From Chthoniobacteraceae bacterium (GTDB lineage: Bacteria; Verrucomicrobiota; Verrucomicrobiia; Chthoniobacterales; Chthoniobacteraceae): a DNA stretch of 64,000 nucleotides. Positions 15,220 to 29,414 of this stretch are shown piece after piece. The stretch lies in NCBI GenBank assembly GCA_031409335.1, contig JANNWY010000193.1, positions 32,001 through 96,000 on the forward strand, given 5' to 3'. Numbering within the stretch: position 1 is the stretch's first letter; the number at the start of each line of letters is the position of its first letter. The position numbers and the translations under genes are program-made. Below the pieces are notes generated by a model, which saw only the letters and a list, made by a program, of their open reading frames with translations, ran no database searches and was not told where the DNA came from.

Positions 15220-15352
15220 GGAACCCGGGTAGCACGCTCGTCCCGCCGAAACGAACTTTCATCACGCATCGCTGGTAAAACTGTGAACGAGTTCCGTGAC
15301 GATGCGTCAGGAAAGTCCGTCGAGGCGGGACGAGCGCGCTTCCCGGAGTTCC
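15220..15352. repeat. REP-like long palindrome, family CGTCCCGCCGAAACGAACTTT (copy A, overlaps the efflux gene 3' end)
   Basis: Arms share CGTCCCGCCGAAACGAACTTT and GAAAGTCCGTCGAGGCGGGACG with 48602-48766. Confidence 0.8.
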
Positions 15353-18300
15353 CGTTCGCGCAGCCATGCGAAAATGACCGGCGTCACAATGAGAATATGA
15401 AGGAGACTTGAAACCATCCCGCCGATCACGGGCGCGGCGAGCGGCTTCATCACCTCCGAGCCGACGCGTGTGCTCCACATGATCGGGAGCAGGCTGGCGA
15501 CGATCGTCGCCACGGTCATTACTTTTGGGCGAAGGCGAAGACGTGCGCCTTCCTTGATCGCGTCGAGTAAATCGGCGCGCGAAAAATTTTCGCCGCGCTC
15601 GCTGCGTTTGCGCGCGAGGGCTTCCTCGAGATACACGACCATTACCACTCCCGTCTGAATCGCCGTGCCGAAGAGCGCGATGTAGCCGAACCACACGGCG
15701 ACGCTGAAATTGTAGCCGAGCAGGTATTGCAAGAACACGCCGCCGGTCAGCGCGAAGGGCACGGCGAGGATGACGTGCGCGGCTTCCTTCACGCTGCCAT
15801 AGACGAGGTAGAGCAGCAGGAAAATGATCGCGAGCACGGCAGGCACGATGAGTTGCAGCGTGCGCTTGGCGCGGATTTGGTTTTCGTACTGGCCGCTCCA
15901 TTCGATCGTCATGCCGTCGGGAAGTTTGACGTCGCGCGCGATTCGCTGGCGCGCTTCATCCACAAAGCCGCCGAGGTCGCGGCCCTGCACGTTCGCCTGC
16001 ACGAAGACCCGCAGCCGCCCGTTCTCGCTGGCGATTTCGCTCGGGCCGGTGTTGCGCGAAATCGAGGCAAGCTGGCCGAGCGGGATTTGTTTCCCCGCGG
16101 GCGTCGCCACGAGCACGTCACCGAGGCGTTCGATGTCGTCGCGCTCGTCGCGCGCGACCCGGACTTGGATGGGAAAACGCTGCCGTCCCTCAATGGTCGT
16201 CGTCACATTTTTTCCGCCGAGTCCCGCTTCTACCACATCGAGAATCTGCTGCGCGCGCAGGCCGTAGCGCGCGGCGGATTCGCGGTTCACCGCGATTTCG
16301 AGATACGGCTTTCCCTGCACCCGTGAAGGCGCGACGCCGACCGCGCCGGGGATTTCGCGCACGATTTTTTCGATCTCGAACGCCTTCGCCTGCAACGCAT
16401 CGAGATTCGCACCGAGCACCTTGATGCCGACCTGTGCGCGGATCCCGGTCGAGAGCATGAGGATGCGATTTTCGATCGGCTGGAGAAAGCCGGGCACGTA
16501 GCCGGGGACTTGCGTGAGCTTTTGCGTCAGCTCGGCGATGAGCGCGCCCTTCGTCATGCCCGCGCGCCATTCGTGCTCCGGTTTGAGCATGATCGTCGTC
16601 TCGATCATCTCGACCGGCGCGGGATCGGTGGGCGATTCCGCGCGTCCGAGTTTGCCCGCTGCGGAGAGCACTTCCGGCGTTTGGGAAATGGCGGTGTCCT
16701 GCCACGACATGATGCGTTTCACCTCGGTGAGGCTGGTGCTCGGCAGCAGCACGGGCATAAAAAGCAGCGAGCCTTCGTTGAGCGGCGGCATGAATTCCCG
16801 GCCCATGCGTGGGATGAGCGCGAGCGCGCCGACGAGCATGAGCGCGGCGCAGGCGAGGACGGATTTGCGATGCGTGAGCGCCCAGTCGAGCGTGGGATTG
16901 TAAATCGCGAGCAGCCCGCGCATGACCCAGTTTTTTTCCTCGGAATGGAACGGGCCTTTGACCAGCAGCACGCAGAGCACGGGGACGATGGTGACCGCGA
17001 GCAGCGTGGAGCCGATCATCGCGAAGGTCTTCGTGAAGGCGAGGGGATGAAACAGTTTCCCTTCCTGGCCGGTGAGCGCGAACACTGGCACGAACGCGAG
17101 AATGATGATCGCCATCGCGAAGAAGATCGGGCGGCCGACTTGCTTCGATGCGGCGAGGACCACATCGAATGTTTCACCACGGGTCAGCGCCGCGCCCTTT
17201 TTCCCCTCCGCCTCCTCGCAATGCCGGATCACATTTTCCGTCATCACGATCGCGGCATCGACGAGCACGCCAATGGCGATCGCGATGCCGCTCAGCGACA
17301 TGATGTTCGACGTGATGCCGAACTGCCGCATGAGGATGAACGAGATGAGAATCGAGACCGGCAGCGGAAACGTGACGATGAGGATGCTGCGGAAATGGAA
17401 CAGGAAAACGATGTGCGCGAGCGTGACGAGGATGATCTCCTCGGTAAGCGCGTGCTTGAGCGTGGCAATGGTGCGGTCGATCAATTCGCTGCGGTCGTAG
17501 AACGATTTGATCGTGACACCCGGCGGCAGGCTCGGCGCGATTTGCGCGATTTTTTCCTTAATGCGAGCGATCACTTCGCGCGCGTTTTCACCGGTGCGCA
17601 TCACCACGATGCCACCGACGACTTCGCGCCCGTTCACATCCAGCGCGCCGCGGCGGAAGTCGCCGCCGATCTGCACGGTGGCGACATCGCGCAGGTAAAT
17701 CGGCGTGCCTTCGCGCTCGGCGAGCACGGTCTTTTCGAGATCGGCGGTGGACTGAATGAGGCCGATCCCGCGCACCACGAATTCCATGCCGTTTTCCTCG
17801 ATCACCTTGCCGCCGACGTTGAGGTTGCTCTGACCCACGGCTTCCATCACTTCCTGCAGCGACACTTTGGCCGCGCGCATTTTCATCGAAGAGACCTCAA
17901 TCTGATACTGCCGCACGAACCCCCCGACACTCGCGACCTCCGCGACGCCGGGCACCGCATTCAGTTGATAACGCACAAACCAATCCTGCACCGCGCGCAG
18001 TTCGCCGAGGTCGTGGCCCTGCTTCGCATCATCCACATCGAGGTAATACTGGAAGACCCATCCGAGCCCGGTCGCGTCCGGGCCGAGCTTCGCGGTGACG
18101 CCGGCGGGCAGGATGTCGCCGAGATAATTCAGTCGCTCGAGCACGCGCGTGCGGGCGAAGTAGTTGTCGATCTTGTCGTCGAAAATAATCGTGAGCAGCG
18201 AGAAGCCAAACATCGAATTCGCGCGCACCGTTTTCACTCCGGCGAGGCCCTGGAGATTTACGGAAAGCGGATACGTGATCTGATCCTCGACCTCCTGCGG

Positions 18301-18471
18301 ACTGCGCCCCGCCCAGTCGGCGAAGACGATGACTTGGTTTTCGCTGAGGTCGGGGATGGCGTCGATCGGCGTGCGGCGCAGCTCGAAGATGCCGAGCGCA
18401 ATGATGAAGAGCGTGGCGCACGCGACGAGGAAACGGTTTCGCAGCGACCACTCGATGAGGCGCGGGATCAT
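15307..18471 (-). CDS. cusA: CusA/CzcA family heavy-metal RND efflux permease
   Basis: [60 protein letters not shown] overlap with the upstream adaptor. Confidence 0.92.
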
Positions 18472-20159
18472 GGCTTCACCTCGCCGCCGCATTCGAGCAT
18501 TTCGCGGCCAAAGTACGGATTGCGGATGGGCGCGGAGAGTTGCATCCATGCGGCTTTGGCGGGCGCGCCGGGGAAGGAGTCGGCGGTCATCGGGCAGCGG
18601 TAGATTTTCACCGTGGCGAATGCCGGATCGCGCGCGCGCAACTGCGCGACCCACGGGACCAGCGCATCGCCGAGCGGCTGGAATGCCTTGCGCGCCATCG
18701 GCAGGTCGGGCGCTTCCCGCAGGTCGAGAGTGCTCGCGACTGCCGGCACTTCGTCGCCGAAAACGGCGGTGAGCCGCGCGCGATTCTCCGCCGCAGTCTT
18801 CGCGAGTTGATTGAAACCGGCGAGGTCATCCGCGGCGAGCCGTTGCGCCAGCGCGTCGGCGAAAACGAAAAATTCCCGCACGGCTTCGCGCTGCGTGTCG
18901 GTGAGATCGGATGTCATTGTCCGCGCGGGCGCCACGGATTCCCCACCCCGATTGAGCTGCGCCTGCGCATCGATCAGCAGGTTGCCATTGGTCACGACGT
19001 TCTCGCCTTCCGCCAAGCCGCTCGCGACCTCGTAAAAGTCGTCACCCACACGCCCGAGCTTCACTTCGCGCGGTTCGTACACACCCTCCGCTTTCACCAC
19101 ATACACTAGCGGATTCGCGCCGGTAGCGAGGACCGCGGATCGTGGCACGGTCAGCGTTTCCGGCGTTTCGACGCGGATCACGCCGTTGGCGTAAACGCGA
19201 TGCAGCAGCTCGTGACGATGCCTCGCGGGGTCGCCGACGTGCGGGTTGTCGATGACCACGCGGATGCGCGCGGTGCGCGTGTCCATCATCACGTTCGGAT
19301 CGATGAATTCGATCGGCGCGGTGTAGGTTTTTCCTGGCACGGTGGGCGTCGAAATCTCGACCGTCTGGCCGATCTTGATCCACGCGAGATCGCGCTCGTA
19401 CACGTCACCGACGAACCACATTTTCGCGAAGTCCGCGATCTCGAAGAGCACGTCGCCCTCCTTCACATACTGGCCTTCATAGACCTTGCGCTCGACGACG
19501 GTGCCCGACTTGGGCGCGAGCAATTCGATGTTGTCGCCGGTTTGCTCGGGGAGCTTCTCGATCTGCGCGAGCGTGAGGCCCATGCGGCGCAGTTTTTGGC
19601 GGCTGCCAGCGAGGCCGGCTTCGCGTTCGGGTGAGGGCGGCTGCTTCAGCGCGAGCAGGTATTCCCCGCGGGCGACGATCAGTTCGCGGCTGAAAAAGGA
19701 GACGAGCGGCTGGCCCTCGGTCACTTCCGCGCCGACGGAAGGCACGAACAGTTTTTCGATGCGGCCCTCGACCGTGGCAGACAGTCGGCGATGCGCGGAA
19801 TCGTCGTCGTCGATCTGTCCAGCGACGTGCAGCGAACGGCGCAACGGCTCGCGCTTCACGGGCGCGGTCGCGACGTGGAGCACGTTGATGCTTTGCGCGC
19901 TGAGCGTGACGAGATTTCCGGCAGCGGGCTCCGCCGCCGCACCTTCGTACACCGGCACGAGTTTCATGCCGCAGATGGTGCAGTCGCCCGGTTTGTCGGA
20001 TTTTATCCACGGGTGCATCGGGCTTTGGTAAAATAGGACACGCCGCTCGGCAGAGGGCGTGGAATCAGGCTTTGCGGGCAGTGTGCGCGCGGCGATCCAG
20101 CCGGCGGTGGCGGCGGCGGCGACGAGGAGAATGGTGCGGATGGAGTTTGGAAAAGACAT
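18468..20159 (-). CDS. cusB: CusB-type RND periplasmic adaptor with N-terminal heavy-metal-binding domain and C-terminal DUF3347-like domain
   Basis: YQSPMHP...[14 protein letters not shown]-terminal YRCPM...WMQ...[14 protein letters not shown]. Confidence 0.88.
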
Positions 20160-20581: not shown

Positions 20582-20640
20582 CGGTGTAAAAGATTTCAGC
20601 AAAGACCAAGCTGGGTCAATGGGCGTTCAAAGGTGCTTTC

Positions 20641-20750
20641 GCGCTAAGCGCTCTCGGACTGCGGCGATTCCTTCGCCGCCTTTTTTCCGTTGCGCGGACG
20701 TTATCCCGAAAGCGGCAAAGGAATTGCCGCAGTCCAAGGGCGCTTAGCGC
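20641..20750. repeat. REP-like double-hairpin palindrome, family GGACTGCGG...CCGCAGTCC (copy A)
   Basis: GCGCTAAGCGC..GGACTGCGGCGATTCCTTCGCCGC ... GCGGCAAAGGAATTGCCGCAGTCC..GCGCTTAGCGC; homologous to 60709-60819. Confidence 0.8.
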
Positions 20751-20943
20751 GGCTCCGTCTCGCGCGTCCACTCGGTCCGCTGTTTTAGGAGGTAAAGCAT
20801 CTCACTGGCCATAGTCATCCACCCAGACTGCCGCGGGATCGCGACAACCGATGCGGCGGATATCGCGTTGCGGAAGGAAAATTGCAGCCGTTCGTAGTCG
20901 GCGGAATTCGACTATCGCGGAGAACCGATTCCCAAAGACTAGG

Positions 20944-20993
20944 GATGGTGCGCGGTACAGGGTTCGAACCTGTGACCCCTACCGTGTCAAGGT
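20944..20993 (-). repeat. att site: duplicated 3' half of tRNA-Val(GAC)
   Basis: GATGGTGCGCGGTACAGGGTTCGAACCTGTGACCCCTACCGTGTCAAGGT, identical to 29338-29387. Confidence 0.97.
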
Positions 20994-20999
20994 GAGGGG

Positions 21000-21905
21000 T
21001 TACACTGTAGCCGCGTCTTCGTTGCCGTTTCGTTGCCGTTTTTCCCGCGCCCACTTCCGCTTCCGGGAGCGAATTGGCGGCTTCGATTCTGCCGATACGG
21101 CCTTCGCGCCGACGATCGCGGAAACACGGCCCTCGTTCTCAATCGGGATGTGAAAGCGAGTCCCGGCAACGTCCACTGTCAGCTCGCGCCTCCACACAAC
21201 CGCCGATGTGGCGAACCCGCGCGCTTGTTCCTCGCCCTGCTTGAGCGTGATGACACCGCAAAGGGGATTCCAAAGCCGATAATGCAATTGCGTGGCCGTG
21301 GCCGATTCATCGTCGCTCCATGCGGGATTGTCTTTCGCCGCAAACGCCGCATTGCCGCGCATCCCGGCCCGCAGCGCTCCCATCACAACGTCGGACGTTT
21401 TAGTTTGTGCCGTGGCATTGCGCAGTAGCGCCGCCGTCGTCTCCTCAATCCCGAACTCGGCGCGCATCTCCTCGATCCATTGCGAGAGGACGCACACGAA
21501 CGCCCTCAGCTTCGCAGGAGTCTTTTTCGTTTCTGAGCTATTCTCTCGGGACGCCCTGAGCATGAAGATGATCGCATCGGAGGCGCGTTTCTCGATGTGC
21601 TCGAATTCCCCATCGCTGTATTCCATCGCCTGCCACGCCTCCCACGTCTCCGACGTGTAGGGCTCGCCATTAAGTGCAACTGGCACGCCATCGGGCTTGA
21701 GTAGTGAGGCCGGGTCAACGCCAGTAAATGCCGCGATGCGGTTTGCCAGCTCTGCCGACATCAGTGACAGATACCCTCTGCTTTCGATGCTTTGGACTGT
21801 AGGACATGAGCATCCAACCAGAGCGGCGAACCCTTGCTGCGTTAGTCCCGTGGCCTTACGCAAGGCTTTGAAGGCTAGCTTTAGATGGGGATTGGTCACA
21901 GGCAT
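21000..21905 (-). CDS. XRE-family HTH repressor with extended C-terminal domain
   Basis: LRKATGLTQQGFAALVGCSCPTVQSIES HTH; divergent from the excisionase-like gene. Confidence 0.8.
   Translation of the reverse strand: MPVTNPHLKLAFKALRKATGLTQQGFAALVGCSCPTVQSIESRGYLSLMSAELANRIAAFTGVDPASLLKPDGVPVALNGEPYTSETWEAWQAMEYSDGEFEHIEKRASDAIIFMLRASRENSSETKKTPAKLRAFVCVLSQWIEEMRAEFGIEETTAALLRNATAQTKTSDVVMGALRAGMRGNAAFAAKDNPAWSDDESATATQLHYRLWNPLCGVITLKQGEEQARGFATSAVVWRRELTVDVAGTRFHIPIENEGRVSAIVGAKAVSAESKPPIRSRKRKWAREKRQRNGNEDAATV
21020..21041 (+). promoter_or_regulatory. putative integrase arm-type sites (left end)
   Basis: CGTTGCCGTTT x2 tandem next to the att core; matching pair at 29205-29224. Confidence 0.65.
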
Positions 21906-21906
21906 G

Positions 21907-21923
21907 ACTTGTATAATACAAGT
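21907..21923. promoter_or_regulatory. palindromic operator overlapping -10 elements of the divergent switch
   Basis: ACTTGTAT-A-ATACAAGT. Contains TATAAT (+) and TATTAT (-); the latter lies 7 nt before the repressor ATG. Confidence 0.65.
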
Positions 21924-21986
21924 TTAGTTAGTCACCACAATAACATTCTCGTTGTGATTACTTACAATGCGCGCCCATTAGTCGTC

Positions 21987-22175
21987 ATGCCAACTAAACA
22001 ATACAGCAACATCGAGCAGCTATCCGAGAAGACCGGCATAGCGAAACGCACTATTCGTTCCCTCTATCAGCAGCGCAAAATCAGCGGGATAAAAGCCGGG
22101 CACCGCACCCTGCTCTTCGATGCGGAAAAGGTCTGCGCCGAACTCGCAAGGTTCGAGGTAAAGGCCGTCCAGTAA
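21987..22175 (+). CDS. excisionase / AlpA-like HTH DNA-binding protein
   Basis: 62 aa: NIEQLSEKTGIAKRTIRSLYQQRKISGIKAGHRTLLFD. TAATG-coupled to the next ORF. Confidence 0.8.
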   Translation: MPTKQYSNIEQLSEKTGIAKRTIRSLYQQRKISGIKAGHRTLLFDAEKVCAELARFEVKAVQ

Positions 22176-22375
22176 TGCGCGCCATAATTAAACCCGTCAT
22201 CCCAAAGATTGCCCACGAGCGCGGATACGTGCCAGTAACCGTCCCTTACCGCCCAAATGAGCGGGACGCCCTACGCAGGGCATTGGAAGGCATGAAGGGC
22301 GTGCGTTACCTCTGCGTCGAGTCAACCAAAGGCCGGGGAATCTCCATTTGGCGTTTAGCCAGTGAAGTGAAGTAA
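22175..22375 (+). CDS. hypothetical satellite protein
   Basis: 66 aa; start overlaps the upstream stop (TAATG). Confidence 0.6.
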   Translation: MRAIIKPVIPKIAHERGYVPVTVPYRPNERDALRRALEGMKGVRYLCVESTKGRGISIWRLASEVK

Positions 22376-22421
22376 CCGCAGAACAGAAAGCCGCTTCGCA
22401 TCTATCACGGATTTTTAAGTC

Positions 22422-23258
22422 ATGAATTACACAAAACTTTTCGCATCCATCATCACGTCAACCATCTGGACGGAAGATGACACGACGCGAATCGTGTGGA
22501 TCACAATGCTCGCCAGCGCCAGTAAGGATGGGGAGGTAATGGCGAGCGTCCCGGGACTGGCACGGATAGCCGGGGTATCAATGCAAGCGTGCGAGGCCGC
22601 ACTGAATAAATTCCTATCGCCGGACCCACACTCAAGAACGAAAGACGATGAGGGTCGAAGGATCGAGGTAATTGACGGCGGTTGGCAACTGCTGAATCAC
22701 AAGAAATACCGCGAGATGGCCAGCAAGGAGGAATCCAGAGAGGCGGAAGCGAATCGCAAAGCTCGCTACAGGGCGAAGCTAGCCAGAAACGGAAAGTCCG
22801 GGATGTCCCACAATGTCCCGGACATGTCACATGAAGTCCCAAAAAACCGGCACATAGCAGAAGAAGATACAGAAGAAAAAGCAGCAGCAGCAGCGATCGA
22901 CCTTTTCTCCGATCCCGAAAGCCCCAGCTCGGAAAACGACTTCGTGCAATCATGGAACGCACTCCCAGAGCCGTTCGCCAAAATCCAAGAAATGACCGAA
23001 GATATGGGAACTAAACTCAAGGCGAGGATGGCAGATAGGTTCTGGCGTGAGAATTGGCGAACAGCCGTGAAACAAATCCCGCAAAGTCCGTTCATGCGAG
23101 GGGAGGGCGAAAATGGATGGGTTGCAAGCGCGGACTGGTTTCTTAAACCCGATTCCGTGGATAAAAGCATTGAGGGTAAATACCGCAACGGCGCAGGACG
23201 ATCAAAAGCCCGCCCCAAGCCACTGCCAAGCGCAGCGGACGCCAGAAAGGGGCGGTAA
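22422..23258 (+). CDS. phage-type replication initiator (replisome organizer-like)
   Basis: N-terminal YTKLFASIITSTIW...VWITML...LARIAGVS HTH; C-terminal SPFMRGEGENGWVASADWFLKPDSVDKSIEGKY resembles phage Rep C-termini; internal repeats. Confidence 0.75.
   Translation: MNYTKLFASIITSTIWTEDDTTRIVWITMLASASKDGEVMASVPGLARIAGVSMQACEAALNKFLSPDPHSRTKDDEGRRIEVIDGGWQLLNHKKYREMASKEESREAEANRKARYRAKLARNGKSGMSHNVPDMSHEVPKNRHIAEEDTEEKAAAAAIDLFSDPESPSSENDFVQSWNALPEPFAKIQEMTEDMGTKLKARMADRFWRENWRTAVKQIPQSPFMRGEGENGWVASADWFLKPDSVDKSIEGKYRNGAGRSKARPKPLPSAADARKGR
22794..22840 (+). repeat. iteron-like repeats (putative ori) inside the rep gene
   Basis: AAGTCCG, ATGTCCC, ATGTCCC, ATGTCAC, AAGTCCC at 9-11 bp spacing, followed by an A-rich tract. 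Confidence 0.6.
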
Positions 23259-23542
23259 TGAAAAGAGCCATGCCCCGACCCACTAAAAAGCAGCTTGCTG
23301 AGTTATTGGATGAGCCCACCCACGAAGGCGTCACGTTACGCCAGCGACTTGAGCAAACGGAAGCCATCCTGAACGCGACTGACTCACGCGGAAGGCTGTG
23401 CGTCACGCGCTCTCAAATCTCCACTTTGCTCATCGGCCTTCGATCCTACGCCGGGAGGCATCCACTGTCAGACGCGATGATTGCGAGGCTAAAAGCCACC
23501 AATGGCCTAGCAGCCAGTCACTTAGTTCAAAGAAGATACTGA
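23258..23542 (+). CDS. hypothetical satellite protein
   Basis: 94 aa, TAATG-coupled to rep. Confidence 0.6.
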   Translation: MKRAMPRPTKKQLAELLDEPTHEGVTLRQRLEQTEAILNATDSRGRLCVTRSQISTLLIGLRSYAGRHPLSDAMIARLKATNGLAASHLVQRRY

Positions 23543-23626
23543 CATATATGTAAGCCGCTCCTGCCGTTACGGTTATTCTCCCGGCGGGAGAAATTCCATT
23601 CACTCACGAACTCATCACCCACTACC

Positions 23627-23983
23627 ATGAAAAAAAGCAGACTCGATCAAATCGTCGGTCCCGAACACTTAACCGAAGACCAAGCGCGGGCGGTAGGTAA
23701 TGCCGTCGTCCGCTTCTTCTATGCTGAATACGAAGCATTCGGACCACGCATCAAAGCCGCTGCCACCGCGCAAGATCGCGATGCGATGGCCGCTCTTCGC
23801 TTAGAGGCAAAGGGGAACACGGCTTACCTTTGCAACTGGAATGCCAGAACTAAAGCGAAGTCGGAAAAGCTGGAACTCCTCGAAAAGTATTGGGGCGACA
23901 CCGCCGATAGCTTGACCGAAGCACTTACGCGAGACTTACCACCAAAGGAAGATTCTGAGGGCGGGGAATGGAAGCAATACTAA
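23627..23983 (+). CDS. hypothetical satellite protein
   Basis: 118 aa, ATG start after a C/A-rich leader, same strand as neighbours. Confidence 0.65.
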   Translation: MKKSRLDQIVGPEHLTEDQARAVGNAVVRFFYAEYEAFGPRIKAAATAQDRDAMAALRLEAKGNTAYLCNWNARTKAKSEKLELLEKYWGDTADSLTEALTRDLPPKEDSEGGEWKQY

Positions 23984-24013
23984 CTTGACAAGTTAAAAGC
24001 TCTGCCATTTACT
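23981..24013 (+). promoter_or_regulatory. putative capsid-operon promoter with palindrome over -35
   Basis: TAACTTG-A-CAAGTTA contains a perfect TTGACA (23985-23990); weak -10 TTTACT 17 bp downstream. Confidence 0.5.
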
Positions 24014-24145
24014 CGCATTCAGACAGACGAACCTTCCGTGCCTTATGGGTGCCGTTGGTTTGAAAGTTCGGCAAGCCTCACGCTCGTTGCGCATTCGCGC
24101 TGCCAGCCGCGCCAAAGAGGCAGAAAAGTGCGGCGGCTCTCTCAT

Positions 24146-24176
24146 CCCGGTAGCGGACTACCGGGCACCCTTTCTT
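24146..24176 (+). terminator. strong hairpin, possible terminator/attenuator before the capsid gene
   Basis: CCCGGTAG-CGGA-CTACCGGG followed by CACCCTTTCTT. Confidence 0.45.
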
Positions 24177-24210
24177 GCTCCCGCAAATCAAGCTCCTACT
24201 GAGTAAATTC

Positions 24211-26013
24211 ATGCCTATTCGCACCCTAAAGATACCAGCAACCCTCTACCGCTCGGCGACGATCGAGAGCAAAAAGGGGAAGCTCTCCATGAGCATTTCC
24301 AGTGATGCCCCCTGCCTTCGCGATGACTGGACCGGCGAAAGATATTGGGAAGTTTTAGACCATAGCCCCGGCGGATTCGCCGATACCCGCCTTCGCACTG
24401 GCTTGCCACTCCTGTTTAATCATAACAGGGACCAACATCTAGGACGCGCGAAGGGTTTTCAATGTGACGGCCACAAAATAACTGTCACGGCCCACGTCTG
24501 GAATCGCAGTGCCTTCGCACAGGGAAAGAAGGCGGACATGGAGGCTGGGAGCCTCGTGGACACCTCCATTGGCTACACGATCTTGGACGAGGGAAAGCAA
24601 ATCGGAAGGAAGGATGGACACCCAATCTATCGGTTCAAGTGGGAGCCGCATGAGCACAGCCTTGTAACCGTTCCCGCGGATAGCTCGGTCGGAGTAGGCA
24701 GAAGCCACAATCCCGCCGAGTTCATCGAAATTTCAATTCAAGATAACCAAAACCAAAACCAAATAGATACCAACTATATGCCAGCACCTACAACACAAAC
24801 CCGAGAGAGAATGAGTCACGAACAGCTTCTTGAGCATCAAAATAAGATGCGCCAAACGGTCGCCGGAATCTCGAATCCCCAGTGGCGGGAGCAAGCGTCG
24901 GGATTTATAGACGAGGCAATTCTTAACCAGCAAACCTTCGGCGAGTTTATCGTGCGTTGTCGGGATAGCTTCAAGACCTCCAGCGTGGCGATCGACTGCG
25001 ATACTTACGGATCAAGGGACTTCTTTGAAGCCCGGAACGGCAGTCGGCGTTCAATCGGCGAGCAAATCGCGCGGCATCCCGATATGCTCCAGTTTAGCAA
25101 AGGCGGGAAGCGGGCGGTCGCGTTCGATTTGAAAAACGTCCGTGCGTTCAACGAACTCCGCCAGCGCTCCACAACTACCACGACAAACGCTGGCGTTGTC
25201 ACTGAACAAATGCCCGGCATTCAAGGGATGGCGTTTGAAACACTGACAGTCGCCGACTTGCTCATGCCGGGAGTGACTAGCGGCGGGGCTGTGTCGTTTG
25301 CGAGGGAGGACAGCTTCACAAGTGAAGCGACCACAGCGGGCGAAGCATCACTAGCCACTGAGCAGACGTTCTCTATCTCGCCAGACACGGCCCCGGTAAA
25401 GAAGGTCAGCGCGTGGACCAAGATAAGCGATGAGCTGTTGGCCGACAGCCCGGCCTGCGCGGATCAAATCGGAAACCGCTTAGGGTTTGCTGTGAACAAG
25501 GCTAGCGACCTCCAACTGTTGTCAGGTGATGGCATGGGAACCAATATCAAGGGGATTCTCACAACCGCTGGCATCCAGACGGTTCACAAAGGAGCAGAGT
25601 CCGCGCTTGATACCATCAGGCTTGGGATTGGCGCTATTGATAGCAATTCCGATTACCGCGCAACCGGCCTTGTCATTCATCCAACGCAGTGGACAACGCT
25701 TTCTTTAATCAAGGACACGACGGGCCGATATATCGTTGGACAGGTGTTAATGCCAAACGAGTTCGGGATCATTCTTCGCATTCCTACACTTTGGGGCCTG
25801 CCTGTCTCCGTGTCCAAATCAATGGCTACAACTTCGGTGCTGGTAGTCAGCCGCGATGCCGGGTCCGTATTCCGCAGGCAGGGGTTGAGCGTGGAAGCGA
25901 GTAACAGCAACGAGAACGACTTCCTCAAGGGCTTGATTACCATTCGCGCCACTGAGCGCCTAGCCCTTGCCATCTACAACGCAACCGGGTTCTGTGAAGT
26001 CACCGGCCTGTAG
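24211..26013 (+). CDS. fused HK97-family prohead protease and major capsid protein
   Basis: Protease part: LPLLFNH, TSIGY, EHSLVTVPADSSVGVGRS. Capsid part: KKVSAWTKISDELLADS, QLLSGDG, VIHP..W..L..IKDTTGRYI, LWGLPV, NDFLKGLITIRATERL. Confidence 0.9.
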   Translation: MPIRTLKIPATLYRSATIESKKGKLSMSISSDAPCLRDDWTGERYWEVLDHSPGGFADTRLRTGLPLLFNHNRDQHLGRAKGFQCDGHKITVTAHVWNRSAFAQGKKADMEAGSLVDTSIGYTILDEGKQIGRKDGHPIYRFKWEPHEHSLVTVPADSSVGVGRSHNPAEFIEISIQDNQNQNQIDTNYMPAPTTQTRERMSHEQLLEHQNKMRQTVAGISNPQWREQASGFIDEAILNQQTFGEFIVRCRDSFKTSSVAIDCDTYGSRDFFEARNGSRRSIGEQIARHPDMLQFSKGGKRAVAFDLKNVRAFNELRQRSTTTTTNAGVVTEQMPGIQGMAFETLTVADLLMPGVTSGGAVSFAREDSFTSEATTAGEASLATEQTFSISPDTAPVKKVSAWTKISDELLADSPACADQIGNRLGFAVNKASDLQLLSGDGMGTNIKGILTTAGIQTVHKGAESALDTIRLGIGAIDSNSDYRATGLVIHPTQWTTLSLIKDTTGRYIVGQVLMPNEFGIILRIPTLWGLPVSVSKSMATTSVLVVSRDAGSVFRRQGLSVEASNSNENDFLKGLITIRATERLALAIYNATGFCEVTGL

Positions 26014-26113
26014 CTTGTCCTAGGCTTTGCTCGCGCCGTTTCATCGCGAGCTTGCACCGACCGCTGGCGGTGGGGTTTACCAGCGGGCTCCCCTTCCTCG
26101 CGGATTAGGGAGC

Positions 26114-26161
26114 GGGTCCTTCCCAAAGGTGAGGGCATTAGCAGGTTCCTCGGGTGCCCTC
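26114..26161 (+). other. putative lambda-type cos packaging site (cosQ-like motif plus dyad)
   Basis: GGGTCCT at 26114-26120 (the lambda cosQ heptamer), followed by dyad GAGGGCA-N17-TGCCCTC, just upstream of the terS-like gene. Confidence 0.55.
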
Positions 26162-26209
26162 TGTCGCCGGTTATCACACTTTCCATAGTGGCAACAGCAC
26201 GTCTTTTCC

Positions 26210-26680
26210 ATGAGCCTCCTATCCATAAACCAGCTTTCCAGCCTCACCGGACACAGCCGCGAACACGTAAAACGCTCGCTGTCGGACCTGCCATTTACCG
26301 AGGGCGCGAAGGGTGCGCACCTATACGATGCAACCCGCGTCCTAACTCTCAGGCTTAACGCTCACGGCCAGCTACTTGCCACCGAGCAGGAAAGCAGACG
26401 CAGTTTGAACGAGGCTAAAAAGCGCGTCCTTGAGTTGCAGGAGCAGTCGCTTAGGAAAGAGCGAATTCCGCTCAGTGTAGTGCAGAGAATCAATTCCCGC
26501 GTCTTGGATACAGTCGCCCACATATTAAAATCCCGGCGCGGTAAAGTTCTGGATGAGCACACCATGAAGGACCTATTCCACGAGCTATCCGCCGCCGGGG
26601 ATGGGGTAGATGGCTTTGTGAATCCGCCCGCCTCCATGCCTCCCACTAAGCCAAAGAGTAAGCCACGCCGAAAGAAATGA
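26210..26680 (+). CDS. small terminase / packaging-redirection protein (Nu1/DUF1441/Rpp-like)
   Basis: LLSINQLSSLTGHSREHVKRSL...GAKGAHLY winged HTH, then coiled coil ESRRSLNEAKKRVLELQ...ERIPL. Confidence 0.7.
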   Translation: MSLLSINQLSSLTGHSREHVKRSLSDLPFTEGAKGAHLYDATRVLTLRLNAHGQLLATEQESRRSLNEAKKRVLELQEQSLRKERIPLSVVQRINSRVLDTVAHILKSRRGKVLDEHTMKDLFHELSAAGDGVDGFVNPPASMPPTKPKSKPRRKK

Positions 26681-26862
26681 GCCCGAAAGACGACCGCCGC
26701 TGCGAGCGCCTGCTCCTAAAGATGTTCGCGGAAGTCATCCGCGAAATCTTCAAAACGCCGATTCAGTGGGATTCCGAGCCATCCATTGCCAGCGCCGTTA
26801 AGCGCAGCGCACCGCCACGGCTCACGAAAGGCAAATCCAAGGGGATGGGTGCGCCCCGGTAG
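26677..26862 (+). CDS. small basic hypothetical protein
   Basis: 61 aa; ATGA overlap with the terS-like gene. Confidence 0.4.
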   Translation: MSPKDDRRCERLLLKMFAEVIREIFKTPIQWDSEPSIASAVKRSAPPRLTKGKSKGMGAPR

Positions 26863-26937
26863 CAATCAAGGGCCGTGGCGGGCATCCTCGCGCAAAGCGA
26901 TCATCTCAGTTCGCCCGTATTGGAGCCATGCCAGCCT

Positions 26938-27270
26938 TCACCTTGGCGGGCATTGGAAACATTCCATCACCTTGCGAAACAGCGGCAGCCTTCGCGCCGT
27001 CGAAACCACTCCGCGCCGGGCACCGATGAACTCCCGGCGAATCACGTAGAGATGATCGCACCGAACCGCCGTTGCGTTGTCCAAACCGTCTGCTTTATCC
27101 AACACGAAATGGATCGCCTTCGGTTGGAAATTCGGGCGCACCGAGCGGCAGAAAAGCCCGTTCACTTCCGCAAAGTCCGCATTCTCAGCGCGGGCGGGAT
27201 TCGAGAGAATCAGAACGGGGTGACTTCCTTCCTTCTCGAAAGGGTAGTCATAGATTTCCCATTGCCTCAC
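26938..27270 (-). CDS. PemK/MazF family toxin
   Basis: MRQWEIYDYPF...HPVLILSN...GLDNATAVRCDHLYVI...RRGVV. GTG start overlaps the upstream stop (GTGA). Confidence 0.8.
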   Translation of the reverse strand: MRQWEIYDYPFEKEGSHPVLILSNPARAENADFAEVNGLFCRSVRPNFQPKAIHFVLDKADGLDNATAVRCDHLYVIRREFIGARRGVVSTARRLPLFRKVMECFQCPPR

Positions 27271-27443
27271 CGAGCGTGCTGGCGGCATACCGCCTCACCG
27301 ATGCGGTTCGCTTCCTCGATGTCCTCCGCGTCATACCGCAGCGGTGAATGAGTCGCGCCCGCTCCACGAAGCATCCGCACCGGAAGAGCGGGTTTCTTTC
27401 GCGCGAGCTTTTTGGGGGATAGTTTCGCAACGGTGGTTTTCAT
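27267..27443 (-). CDS. putative antitoxin
   Basis: 58 aa, basic N-terminus and acidic C-terminus; coupled to both neighbours and directly upstream of the toxin. Confidence 0.55.
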   Translation of the reverse strand: MKTTVAKLSPKKLARKKPALPVRMLRGAGATHSPLRYDAEDIEEANRIGEAVCRQHAR

Positions 27444-28039
27444 CACACGGGAACAGACCACAGGGCGTGCTGACGCGCAATCAAATCGAACTCGGCGAGA
27501 TGCTGCGGCTTGAACTTCAAAAGTCCGTCCACACGTCCCGCCCGGTATGAGCGGCCCCGCCGATGGATCATCAAGCCCTCGCCTCCTTTCGACACAACAC
27601 GCTCCAACATCTGCGGGAGTGAATCCATCGACGGCAAAACTTCCATCGGCACCACTTCCGCGAATTCGCCTAGATCAAGCCGCATCATTGCCGCATGTCG
27701 CAACGCGAAATCTCCCGCCACAGTCGGCGCATCAAAGATCATCAAACGCAGTGAACGCCAGTTTCCGGCCTTGCTCGCGACCGCACGGGAGACTTCATCC
27801 CGCGCGCCACGGCCCGCCCACAGCTCGCAATCGAGAATTCGGCGGGGAAGCCCCTCGGTGAACCAATCAGGGGCATTCACGGCCTTGCCAGATCGCAGGA
27901 AAAGCCGCGTGCCAGTCCACCGAACGCGCCAGCCATCTAGCTTTTCCACGACGTAGGAGCCGGAAAGATCGCCGTCGTTTCGGTCGAAATCGAAACCGTG
28001 CATCAACTTGTTAATGGACCTTAACATTTGTCCTGGCAT
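27443..28039 (-). CDS. ATP-dependent ligase adenylation (nucleotidyltransferase) domain lacking the OB domain
   Basis: Motifs I EKLDGWR, III LDCELW, IIIa IFD, IV EGLM, V LLKFKP; ORF ends 20 aa after motif V. Confidence 0.85.
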   Translation of the reverse strand: MPGQMLRSINKLMHGFDFDRNDGDLSGSYVVEKLDGWRVRWTGTRLFLRSGKAVNAPDWFTEGLPRRILDCELWAGRGARDEVSRAVASKAGNWRSLRLMIFDAPTVAGDFALRHAAMMRLDLGEFAEVVPMEVLPSMDSLPQMLERVVSKGGEGLMIHRRGRSYRAGRVDGLLKFKPQHLAEFDLIARQHALWSVPV

Positions 28040-28053
28040 CGCTATTTACCGAG

Positions 28054-29196
28054 TCACGCGGCGCGGGAAATCGAGACAACCTTTCCGTCCCGCGCTGGCG
28101 CGATCTTCCAAAAAGCTGCCGCGTCTTTCGGGCGAACAAGTTCGCGATAATGACGGAAGACAATCGAAGGGCTGTTGCCCATCTCCAAAGCGAGCCGTGC
28201 CGTGTCTCCAATGACGGGCAGGCGATATGATCCAAAACTGTGACGCAGCGCGTTCTGTGGCCAGTTCTCGCGCATCCCGGCCCGGTCCCTGTCCGCCTCA
28301 AGTTTCTTCCGCGCTCCAATCGGGAGAACGGGGCCGGATGCCTTCGCGTGTGCCATCAGCCATTCCCGCAGGTTGTCGGAAATTGGAATCAGTCGGCGGC
28401 TTCCCGTCTTCGCCTTCGCGGCCTTCACTTCGATCAAGCCCGCTTCCAAATCGACTTCCGCCCAATCGAGCCTTTCGAGTTCTGCGGATCGTAGGCCGGC
28501 AAATGCACCGATGGACCAATACGGCAGAGTTTCCGCGCTCGCCGATTCGAGAAGCCGCGCCGTCTGCGCGACCGTCAGAATCCCAATCTCGCCGGATCGC
28601 TCCTTTGCCCGCTCCACGTCCTCAATCGGATTGCGCTCGGCGTAACCCTGTCGCCGGGCAAAGCTGAAAAGCGTTCCGAGACGGCTGCGCGTCGTGTAGC
28701 GGGAAACCGCTCCAACGGAGAGCCCGCGAAGCCAGTCATGAACTTCTTTCGCTGTGATGTCCGCCACCATGCGCTCGCCAAACGTCCGCGCGAACGCATC
28801 GAACTTTAGCCGGATGTCCCGCAGATAGTCCGCGCTCGCACCATCGGCCTTGCGAGTCGCCAGCACTTCCGCCGCAACGTCGGAAAACGAGCGGCTTCCC
28901 GTCACCCGTCGCAAGTGCGCCGCGAAAAACTCCGCCGCATCCAAAATCGTTTTGCCAAACGGTGCCACGATCGCATCGGCCTTTTTTGCCAGAACGCGCA
29001 ACTCGGTTGGAAATTCCGCGCCCTCCGTTCCCTGATTGATCGTCTCAATCGTCTTTTGTTGAGCGAACGTCTCTGCCTCCTTTTTCGTTCCGAAAAACCG
29101 CCGGGCTCGTTTCCCGTCATCCTTGAAATTGACGACGAACTTGAGCAAGGGCCGGTTGGAATCGGCGTATGAGCGAATCTTGAATTGGGTTCTCAT
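28054..29196 (-). CDS. tyrosine recombinase / phage integrase
   Basis: AGLRSAE, KAKT, NALRHSFGSY, EMGNS, RHY; adjacent to the target tRNA. Alternative start at 29223. Confidence 0.93.
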   Translation of the reverse strand: MRTQFKIRSYADSNRPLLKFVVNFKDDGKRARRFFGTKKEAETFAQQKTIETINQGTEGAEFPTELRVLAKKADAIVAPFGKTILDAAEFFAAHLRRVTGSRSFSDVAAEVLATRKADGASADYLRDIRLKFDAFARTFGERMVADITAKEVHDWLRGLSVGAVSRYTTRSRLGTLFSFARRQGYAERNPIEDVERAKERSGEIGILTVAQTARLLESASAETLPYWSIGAFAGLRSAELERLDWAEVDLEAGLIEVKAAKAKTGSRRLIPISDNLREWLMAHAKASGPVLPIGARKKLEADRDRAGMRENWPQNALRHSFGSYRLPVIGDTARLALEMGNSPSIVFRHYRELVRPKDAAAFWKIAPARDGKVVSISRAA

Positions 29197-29204
29197 GTGG
29201 CGAC

Positions 29205-29224
29205 CGTTGCCATCTGTTGCCATT
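29205..29224 (+). promoter_or_regulatory. putative integrase arm-type sites (right end)
   Basis: CGTTGCCATC-TGTTGCCATT, same consensus and orientation as 21020-21041. Confidence 0.65.
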
Positions 29225-29339
29225 TTTTCAACGAAAAACGCGCAAAAATGAGGATTTACCCGTCAGCATGAGTCACAGCGTTTTTTACCTCCAATCGCCC
29301 GCGCCCCCTGTATTTATGCGGTTTCCAGAGTAATTGAGA

Positions 29340-29414
29340 TGGTGCGCGGTACAGGGTTCGAACCTGTGACCCCTACCGTGTCAAGGTAATGCTCTACCAC
29401 TGAGCTAACCGCGC
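29340..29414 (-). tRNA. tRNA-Val(GAC)
   Basis: 75-nt cloverleaf GCGCGGTTAGCTCAGTGGTAGAGC...TTGACAC...GGTTCGAACC...ACCA. Confidence 0.97.

Follow-up and report, generated by a model that had tools for sequence, protein, structure and literature searches.

A putative PICI-like satellite of Verrucomicrobiota phages that may take part in building its own head

Introduction

Can a phage satellite that encodes a capsid protein but no portal take part in building its own head, or does it travel in the ordinary heads of a helper phage? The question is raised by an 8.4-kb integrated element at positions 20944-29387 of a 64,000-nucleotide stretch of DNA (the window) from a Chthoniobacteraceae bacterium (contig JANNWY010000193.1, positions 32,001 to 96,000, assembly GCA_031409335.1). 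An initial annotation, made from the letters alone, had described the element as a satellite resembling the phage-inducible chromosomal islands (PICIs). In the PICI model of SatelliteFinder, the core components are an integrase, a regulator, a primase-replicase, a capsid protein and a small terminase subunit (TerS); a portal is forbidden, four of the five components suffice, and a primase-less variant is common (PMC10085698). The capsid genes of PICIs are "thought to" modify helper capsids (PMC10085698). Here, we describe the element, its relatives and its candidate helpers. We read it as a satellite of the PICI type that exploits lambda-like phages of Verrucomicrobiota and contributes to the assembly of its own head, and we put the probability of this reading at roughly 0.55.

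Results

A portal-less element at a tRNA-Val gene

The element is delimited by an exact 50-bp repeat that cannot be extended. One copy (29338-29387, reverse strand) lies inside the intact tRNA-Val(GAC) gene (29340-29414, reverse strand), where it runs from the anticodon loop through the 3' end, and the other (20944-20993, reverse strand) is a displaced 3' half of the tRNA. The two attachment (att) cores are spaced 8,394 bp apart, so that the att repeat and the length of the excised circle predicted earlier are both confirmed. Just inside each end lies a tandem pair of the 10-bp sequence GTTGCCRTYT (21021-21041 and 29206-29225, both forward strand), with no match elsewhere (four matches in the window versus 0.63 expected, for a pattern picked post hoc, after it had been sighted). 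The pairs are placed as expected of integrase arm sites, and are candidates for that function. The GC content is 56.4% in the element versus 62.0% in the genome. The same tRNA gene is free of the element in three of four congeners, which fits recent mobility; no empty site sharing the left flank of the element was found, and the congeners carry other genes behind the tRNA.

The element holds 13 open frames, with stop/start overlaps at four junctions (xis-orf3, rep-orf5, terS-orf9 and ligase-antitoxin). Frames and family matches agree with the integrase, repressor/xis, Rep, protease-capsid and TerS genes of the initial annotation, and so do the missing functions: family scans of 14 frames gave no match to portal, large terminase subunit (TerL), head-tail, tail or lysis families. 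No second capsid was found in the host assembly (7.9 Mb, 98% complete). That the host belongs to the Verrucomicrobiota, suspected from the outset, is supported by a match above cut-off to TIGR02600 (Verru_Chthon_A) on the element's own contig, and the best full-length matches in named genomes are Chthoniobacterales records.

The head gene joins domains of different ancestry

A single 600-aa frame (24211-26013, forward strand) encodes an S78 prohead protease, a helical middle and an HK97-type capsid domain. Both PF04586 and PF05065 match over cut-off (PF05065 E 1e-38), and HK97 gp5 aligns with E 2e-39. The gene is open and the catalytic residues of the protease are intact, His71 and Ser119 being invariant in the alignment. 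The AlphaFold model of the fusion has a mean pLDDT of 46.6 and leaves the capsid part unresolved; a fold search with this model gave support for the protease only (T4 gp21, E 1e-4).

The two domains were placed in separate trees. In the capsid tree (53 domains from 154 hits), the element groups with two other loci, L299 and L312, and ten proteins of unknown context (support 99/98); the contigs of these ten include five of 8.5-10.3 kb, four shorter ones and one of 624 kb. The HK97-type capsids of portal-bearing phages are mostly gathered in a group of their own (100/100); across the 53 rows, the element's group contains no capsid from such a phage. The element is also placed apart from the three full prophages of its order that have HK97-type capsids. 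In the protease tree (72 domains from 238 hits), the element is nested among portal-bearing phages (99/94), with 57-60% identity to L003, L007, L009 and L011, while the other members of its capsid group occupy three other places. A single origin was rejected (p-AU 1.6e-62, 34-row subset). By these trees, the head gene is a mosaic, in which a protease domain like that of the candidate helper class described below is joined to a capsid domain whose clade is satellite-like.

The cross-link residues of the capsid are lost

In HK97, Glu363 has a catalytic role in capsid cross-linking. The chainmail is formed by a Lys-Asn isopeptide bond (PMC5701804). In the gp5 alignment, Lys169, Asn356 and Glu363 correspond to Ala382, Gly574 and Thr581 of the element. 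The 71 homologues nearest to the element's capsid, counted after three duplicate rows had been removed, retain the residues wherever they are covered: Lys in 71/71, Asn in 69/69 and Glu in 68/68. The element departs at four of ten invariant columns, namely the triad and a conservative Ala-to-Ser change, a concentration that we calculate to arise by chance in ~3% of cases, and each of the three triad changes requires at least two base substitutions. A second, independent search gave 149 other best representatives, of which 130 retain all three residues and four are truncated; of the 15 that remain, 13 have lost both Lys and Asn, one of them with the same A/G/T pattern. The 21 closest proteins of that search retain every covered cross-link residue. 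Joint loss of cross-link residues is seen in other capsid lineages too. In capsids of the candidate helper class the residues are absent at the aligned places, but these alignments are weak. The long branch of the capsid notwithstanding, the substitution pattern reads as a cross-link abandoned rather than randomly decayed.

TerS and the cos site point to a class of helper phages

The terS gene (26210-26680, forward strand) encodes a full-length Nu1-type small terminase subunit of 156 aa (phrog_141 E 2e-5). Over its whole length the protein is 27-40% identical to the TerS of eight distinct phage loci with a GpA-type TerL, and its alignment to phage TerS proteins (134-161 aa) extends to their C-terminus. 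The lambda-like phages with a similar TerS mostly also have protease domains close to that of the element. Together with the cos site, these likenesses point to lambda-like phages of up to ~40 kb, with a GpA TerL and a lambda-type portal, as the helper class. A model of two TerS copies (residues 50-135) together with the N-terminus of the L011 TerL, used as a stand-in, scored 0.31, short of a mark of 0.32. A search for TerS homologues returned only TerS itself among 48 candidates.

The earlier label "Rpp-like" is doubtful for this gene. Profile comparison with a 144-aa protein of the island EcCICFT073, presumably RppA, gave a probability of 1%. Rpp proteins are 30-40 residues shorter than helper TerS, and have been proposed to be without its C-terminal TerL-binding part (PMC9026076); the length and the retained C-terminus of the element's protein argue against the label.

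The gap between the capsid gene and terS contains the heptamer GGGTCCT (26114-26120, forward strand), which we take to be a cosQ, then 20 bases, then GCAGGTTCC. The same heptamer lies within 1.5 kb upstream of a GpA TerL in 23 of 66 loci (the searched interval being misplaced in five of the 66), and was absent from downstream control DNA. The first bases of 36 related phage loci (contig ends in 33 cases) indicate where the cut may fall: five read GGTTCCG and one GTTCCG (L009, L011, L013, L022, L032 and L047), two of the six phages being near-identical. The 41,863-bp record of L032 starts with GGTTCCG and ends with the heptamer, 23 bases and GCA. From these ends, the cut is predicted between GCA and GGTTCC (26141-26149, forward strand), with the nick between 26143 and 26144, 23 bases past the heptamer and 66 before terS. 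The suspected cos-like site is thereby supported and located, with a lambda-type layout of cosQ-like heptamer, cut at a fixed distance and terS. The cos motif also precedes TerS in L299, L312 and L313. Pairwise alignment of the regions upstream of terS gave no match exceeding shuffles.

Three side observations concern these sites and genes. The ends of the L032 record join without overlap or gap, so that they may be of another chemistry than the 12-base overhang of lambda. On an 8.7-kb contig (L319:5435-6510, G074), the cos motif and a TerS-like gene lie beside tRNA-Asp and face away from a protease-capsid gene. In L010:24-815 and L012:25-816, the C-terminal region of a phage TerS is fused behind an HNH-like domain.

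Portal-less relatives occur at other tRNA genes

An 11-row capsid alignment was searched against every genome of the host family (150) and of a second family of the order (355), and against samples of the order (400, overlapping) and the phylum (400). In the host family, 4 of 150 genomes matched; a search with the single capsid protein had found nothing in these 150 genomes or in viral contigs. The phylum sample gave five matches, all limited to the N-terminal, protease side of the profile, and no member of the capsid clade in the genomes searched.

Nine other loci with the capsid domain were collected: four small portal-less ones, three full prophages that encode a GpA TerL and a portal of lambda type (L300, L314 and L315), a decayed remnant (L302) and a 2.2-kb contig (L310). 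Among the portal-less loci, L299 measures 9.15 kb, has a 46-bp att repeat at tRNA-Arg, and carries an integrase that adjoins the repressor, an excisionase, a helix-turn-helix (HTH) initiator, a TerS-like gene and a protease-capsid gene. L301 measures 10.2 kb, has a 39-bp att repeat at tRNA-Pro, and carries an integrase, an excisionase, a primase and a ClpP-capsid gene, with no TerS match. L312 holds an integrase (37% identity), excisionase, initiator, TerS (33%) and protease-capsid, and its contig ends before a second att; L313, likewise limited by its contig, has a primase, a TerS-like gene and a protease-capsid gene. It had been stated beforehand that the satellite reading would fail if the element were a one-off deletion of a full prophage. 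This origin is rejected, because four portal-less relatives exist in the order, two of them with att repeats at other tRNAs.

Further features of these loci were noted. After the capsid gene of L299 there is a 490-aa open reading frame (ORF; L299:11813-13285, G365) that resembles a tape measure by eye and matches nothing in PHROG, Pfam or PADLOC; EPIPs and PLE11 are said to carry tape-measure-type proteins. A ClpP-type protease is fused to a related HK97 capsid both in L301 (5880-7856, G479) and in the full prophage L314, and L301 also has an HSP90-like ATPase matching PADLOC MzaB. A distant parallel is the viral contig L029 (10,647 bp), a circular element of ~10.5 kb with a 110-nt terminal repeat that carries an integrase, an excisionase, an S49 protease and an HK97 capsid; five of its frames, scanned with PHROGs, gave no portal or terminase.

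Comparison with known satellites

The element has an integrase with att repeat, a capsid gene and TerS, and gave no portal, head-tail, tail or holin match; its 8.4 kb compare with ~9.5 kb in the PICI model. An O-like initiator stands in place of the primase-replicase (the relatives L301 and L313 carry primases), and the integrase does not lie at one end beside the regulators. Judged by these genes, at least three and probably four of the five PICI core features are present, and the departures in primase and gene order make the element a PICI-like variant and not a strict member. It is not a capsid-forming PICI (cf-PICI), since the frame scans gave no portal, TerL, head-tail connector or HNH of its own. 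Nor is its capsid a cross-linked one of the HK97 type, given the triad changes. The initial annotation had called the element an intermediate satellite. It does bring a capsid and packaging specificity and must borrow the rest, but the claim of a new intermediate between PICI and cf-PICI is not supported: capsid and TerS without a portal are already in the PICI core and in EcCICFT073, and phiRv1 is a further precedent, so the overall design is known.

Gram-negative PICIs such as EcCICFT073 are the closest in design. They share the size (~8-11 kb), an integrase, a regulator and a replication gene, the order capsid, cos and TerS-like gene, the absence of portal, TerL, tail and lysis genes, and a helper-like cosQ/cosN for a lambda-type terminase. 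EcCICFT073 itself reads int-alpA-primase-capsid-decoration-Rpp, without portal or TerL, and its capsid-cos-Rpp order is that of the element. The element differs in having an O-like initiator and not a primase, a presumably Stl-like repressor with divergent xis instead of AlpA, an HK97 gp5-type capsid fused to a protease (gpE-type with a decoration protein in EcCICFT073), a full-length TerS instead of a shortened Rpp, and an integrase inverted relative to the core. The packaging genes of the two are analogous and not closely homologous.

In the Gram-positive Staphylococcus aureus pathogenicity islands (SaPIs), TerS recruits the helper TerL (PMC6739421). SaPIbov5 is a cos-type satellite with a capsid homologue, Ccm, a helper-type cos and no portal; Ccm is 24% identical to the capsid protein of the helper and co-assembles with it (PMC8569155). 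Ccm is without a protease, and SaPIbov5 is described as bearing the cos of its helper (PMC8569155), whereas the element has a protease-bearing capsid and its own TerS. The putative PICIs phiRv1 and phiRv2 of the Mycobacterium tuberculosis complex share a size of ~10 kb, integrase, excisionase, terminase, prohead protease and capsid (PMC12268328). They differ in primase replication, in separate protease and capsid genes and in phylum, and no particles were reported for phiRv1 in the parts of the literature covered. The cf-PICIs, such as EcCIEDL933, share an own capsid and maturation protease, which are fused in some Firmicutes cf-PICIs (PMC10085698), but also encode portal, head-tail connectors, HNH and TerL (bioRxiv 2022.09.08.507074). 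Among PICI-like environmental satellites that integrate at tRNAs, tycheposons have a capsid or TerS and not both. VEIMEs, some of them in Verrucomicrobia, have a TerS most like that of co-occurring phages and no capsid gene, and EPIPs have TerS, capsid and tape measure genes but a serine integrase and head-tail proteins (further comparison literature: PMC9618062, bioRxiv 2020.12.28.424599, PMC12822802). No capsid-bearing satellite in Verrucomicrobiota was found in this literature; the SatelliteFinder and VEIME supplements and Fillol-Salom 2018 lay outside the search and could list such hosts or fusions. Elements of this type have hardly been described from the phylum. New here are the Verrucomicrobiota host, a located, predicted cos cut, a phage-like TerS and protease, the latter fused to a satellite-clade capsid, and the predicted loss of cross-links.

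Other genes of the element and its surroundings

At the left end, a 301-aa HTH repressor (21000-21905, reverse strand) matches PF13560 over cut-off and phrog_8, and is 30% identical to the repressor of L299. Family scans gave no S24 peptidase match in it, and the protein may be Stl-like. A perfect 8-bp inverted repeat directly upstream of its start (21907-21923) is a candidate operator. The divergent xis (21987-22175, forward strand) encodes a 62-aa excisionase/Cro-like HTH protein, named from position, orientation and a below-cut-off match to TIGR01764 (E 0.002). Pfam profiles gave HTH_31/HTH_3 for the repressor and a weak MerR/HTH_17 match for xis. Coupled to xis is orf3 (22175-22375, forward strand; 66 aa), an open frame with no family match. 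The rep gene (22422-23258, forward strand) encodes a phage O-like initiator of 278 aa (phrog_10469 E 4e-22, phrog_345 E 6e-13), its N-terminus being 27-29% identical to Rep of the full prophages L300 and L397; a phage-type initiator instead of a primase-helicase had been correctly recognized. It is coupled to orf5 (23258-23542, forward strand; 94 aa, no family match). The 118-aa orf6 (23627-23983, forward strand), with no usable Atlas match, has a weak homologue at the same position in L299 (25% identity, pairwise E 4e-5).

Downstream of terS and coupled to it lies orf9 (26677-26862, forward strand; 61 aa, no family match). It is followed on the reverse strand by a MazF/PemK-like toxin gene (26938-27288; 116 aa, PF02452 E 8e-4, below the Pfam cut-off, 44% identity to a host paralogue on C214) and a putative antitoxin gene, assigned by position (27267-27443; 58 aa, no family match). 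Coupled to the latter is a gene missing from the first gene list (27443-28039, reverse strand), which encodes a DNA-ligase adenylation domain of 198 aa (PRK09125 positions 31-213 of 283) without the oligonucleotide-binding (OB) domain; the short OB-less form also occurs in P0034-P0036 and in Atlas clusters (178-216 aa) that are mostly viral. The tyrosine integrase (28054-29223, reverse strand; 389 aa, or 380 from a second ATG at 29196) matches PF00589 and PF22022 over cut-off, and its catalytic motifs resemble those of relatives. Its gene runs inward from the tRNA at the end opposite the regulatory switch, as originally read, and meets the repressor only across attP. Scans for promoters and terminators stayed at chance level, and PADLOC on eight element proteins gave no defence family beyond a weak HTH match.

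Directly left of the element, heavy-metal efflux genes (15307-20159) look CusA/CusB-like by eye. A 43-bp inverted repeat at 20640-20751 was considered as a part of the element and rejected, as it belongs to a dispersed host repeat family found on at least ten other contigs. Elsewhere in the host, a second small island (L204:13037-17424, G000 C316) has an integrase 36% identical to the element's, then two ORFs resembling parts of a primase and a helicase, and no capsid match; L205:12575-17635 (G000 C293), with a related integrase, xis, HTH and relaxase-like ORF, is possibly a mobilisable island.

Discussion

A possible life cycle

Sequence-level support covers the integration, the gene set, the form of the cos site and the relatedness of TerS and protease; from these we infer the dynamic steps as follows. 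The resting element would be silenced by its repressor, which appears to have no self-cleaving domain, until an infecting helper lifts repression. Int and Xis would excise the 8,394-bp circle, and the O-like initiator would replicate it via helicase loading by host or helper. Full-length TerS may then bind element DNA beside cos and recruit the helper's GpA-type TerL, which would cut at GCA/GGTTCC. The DNA would enter through the helper portal into heads for which the element's protease-capsid protein supplies some or all of the shell; these heads would probably be small and held without covalent cross-links. Connector, tail and lysis would come from the helper, and MazF with its partner may stabilise the resting element or abort infections. 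A history of the lineage can be sketched more tentatively, and we would not bet on it at even odds: it may keep its own line of capsid domains and repeatedly take the protease/scaffold domain, TerS and cos from helpers, with this member having given up chainmail for a small head, which it would build either on the portal of a helper that forms no cross-links or jointly with the capsid protein of that helper.

Weighing the alternatives

Several observations weigh against the proposed satellite with a head partly of its own making. Phages of the group also swap protease domains (L020 and L315 compared with L300 and L021), so the mosaic alone need not be an adaptation. The base after GGTTCC is T in the element versus G in the 15 related phage and satellite sites seen. 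When viral contigs were scanned without bias for the two-part cos motif, 77 matches came up, four of them upstream of a GpA-type TerL (three within 3.5 kb), and the motif alone is therefore unspecific. The capsid domain has a long branch (0.66), differing at 18 of 67 positions fixed in ten clade relatives, and the capsid gene is frameshifted in two of the four portal-less relatives (L299, near its 3' end, and L313). EcCICFT073 carries a capsid gene and travels in phage-sized capsids (PMC6739421; bioRxiv 2022.09.08.507074), and Ccm alone forms no capsids (PMC8569155). Two portal and three TerL families were without a match in the host assembly, and hence no resident helper was found. No attP or attB joints were listed for four DNA runs of one study, one of them possibly the source; these were contigs, which break at the 50-bp att, and the negative therefore says little either way. 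No RNA run holding the element was listed. Contig depth was level with the flanks (X1, 10.5 versus 7.4-14.4; X2, 5.5-8.4 versus 5.8-8.1, no excess).

The main rival explanation is a working satellite packaged in unmodified helper heads. Cos-cut concatemers would be packaged as in EcCICFT073, with TerS acting directly or in an Rpp-like heterodimer with helper TerS, and the capsid protein would be an accessory or merely disturb helper assembly. EcCICFT073, in which capsid, cos and Rpp follow one another likewise, is a precedent; a head of 40 kb would hold about five copies of 8.4 kb; and L299 and L313 have kept TerS-like genes and the cos motif in spite of their broken capsid frames. Moreover, the element's capsid is the most divergent of the 11 aligned clade members (best full-length match 45% identity) and is predicted to be unable to cross-link. 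Yet a 1.8-kb capsid gene has been retained with the catalytic residues of its protease intact, capsid genes of one clade recur across several independent elements, and the departures concentrate on the cross-link triad instead of scattering over the invariant positions. We consider packaging in ordinary heads possible but somewhat doubtful.

That the toxin-antitoxin pair now keeps only a remnant, inactive or in decay, of a satellite of this kind or of a deleted prophage seems unlikely. The unseen circle and level depth would suit it, as would a phage-type Rep that is not followed by the DnaC-like loader found behind Rep in prophage L300, the long capsid branch, the changed cos base and the OB-less ligase; close relatives were found neither for the capsid nor by the TerS search, and the decayed relative L302 shows that remnants exist. 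Against it, all 13 frames are open with coupled junctions, the att cores are identical, arm sites lie at both ends, and the short ligase is a recurring form. The capsid phylogeny also joins the element to portal-less elements and not to the order's three full HK97-type prophages, and the element-free tRNA of three congeners fits recent mobility.

It is highly improbable that the element forms portal-less shells without any helper or represents a domesticated, encapsulin-like shell, the kind of role proposed for HK97-fold mini genomes of ~8.75 kb: size, integrase and missing portal and tail match that group (PMC13669383), and the lost cross-links and a weak match to the family 3 encapsulin NF041188, far below cut-off, lean the same way, but the mini genomes are without terminases (PMC13669383), the best solved-structure matches of the element's protein are phage capsids, and its TerS and helper-type cos make sense only with a TerL and a portal.

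Implications

If the more tentative history of the lineage holds, the element would be capsid-forming but portal-stealing, a state for which the parts of the comparison literature covered gave no experimental demonstration. PICI-type piracy would extend to the Verrucomicrobiota, with an element family, candidate helper phages and a base-exact predicted packaging cut, which together make the system testable in virome reads. With its protease matched to the helper class and the cross-links of its relatives abandoned, the element may also serve as a natural test case for the role of capsid genes in portal-less PICIs.

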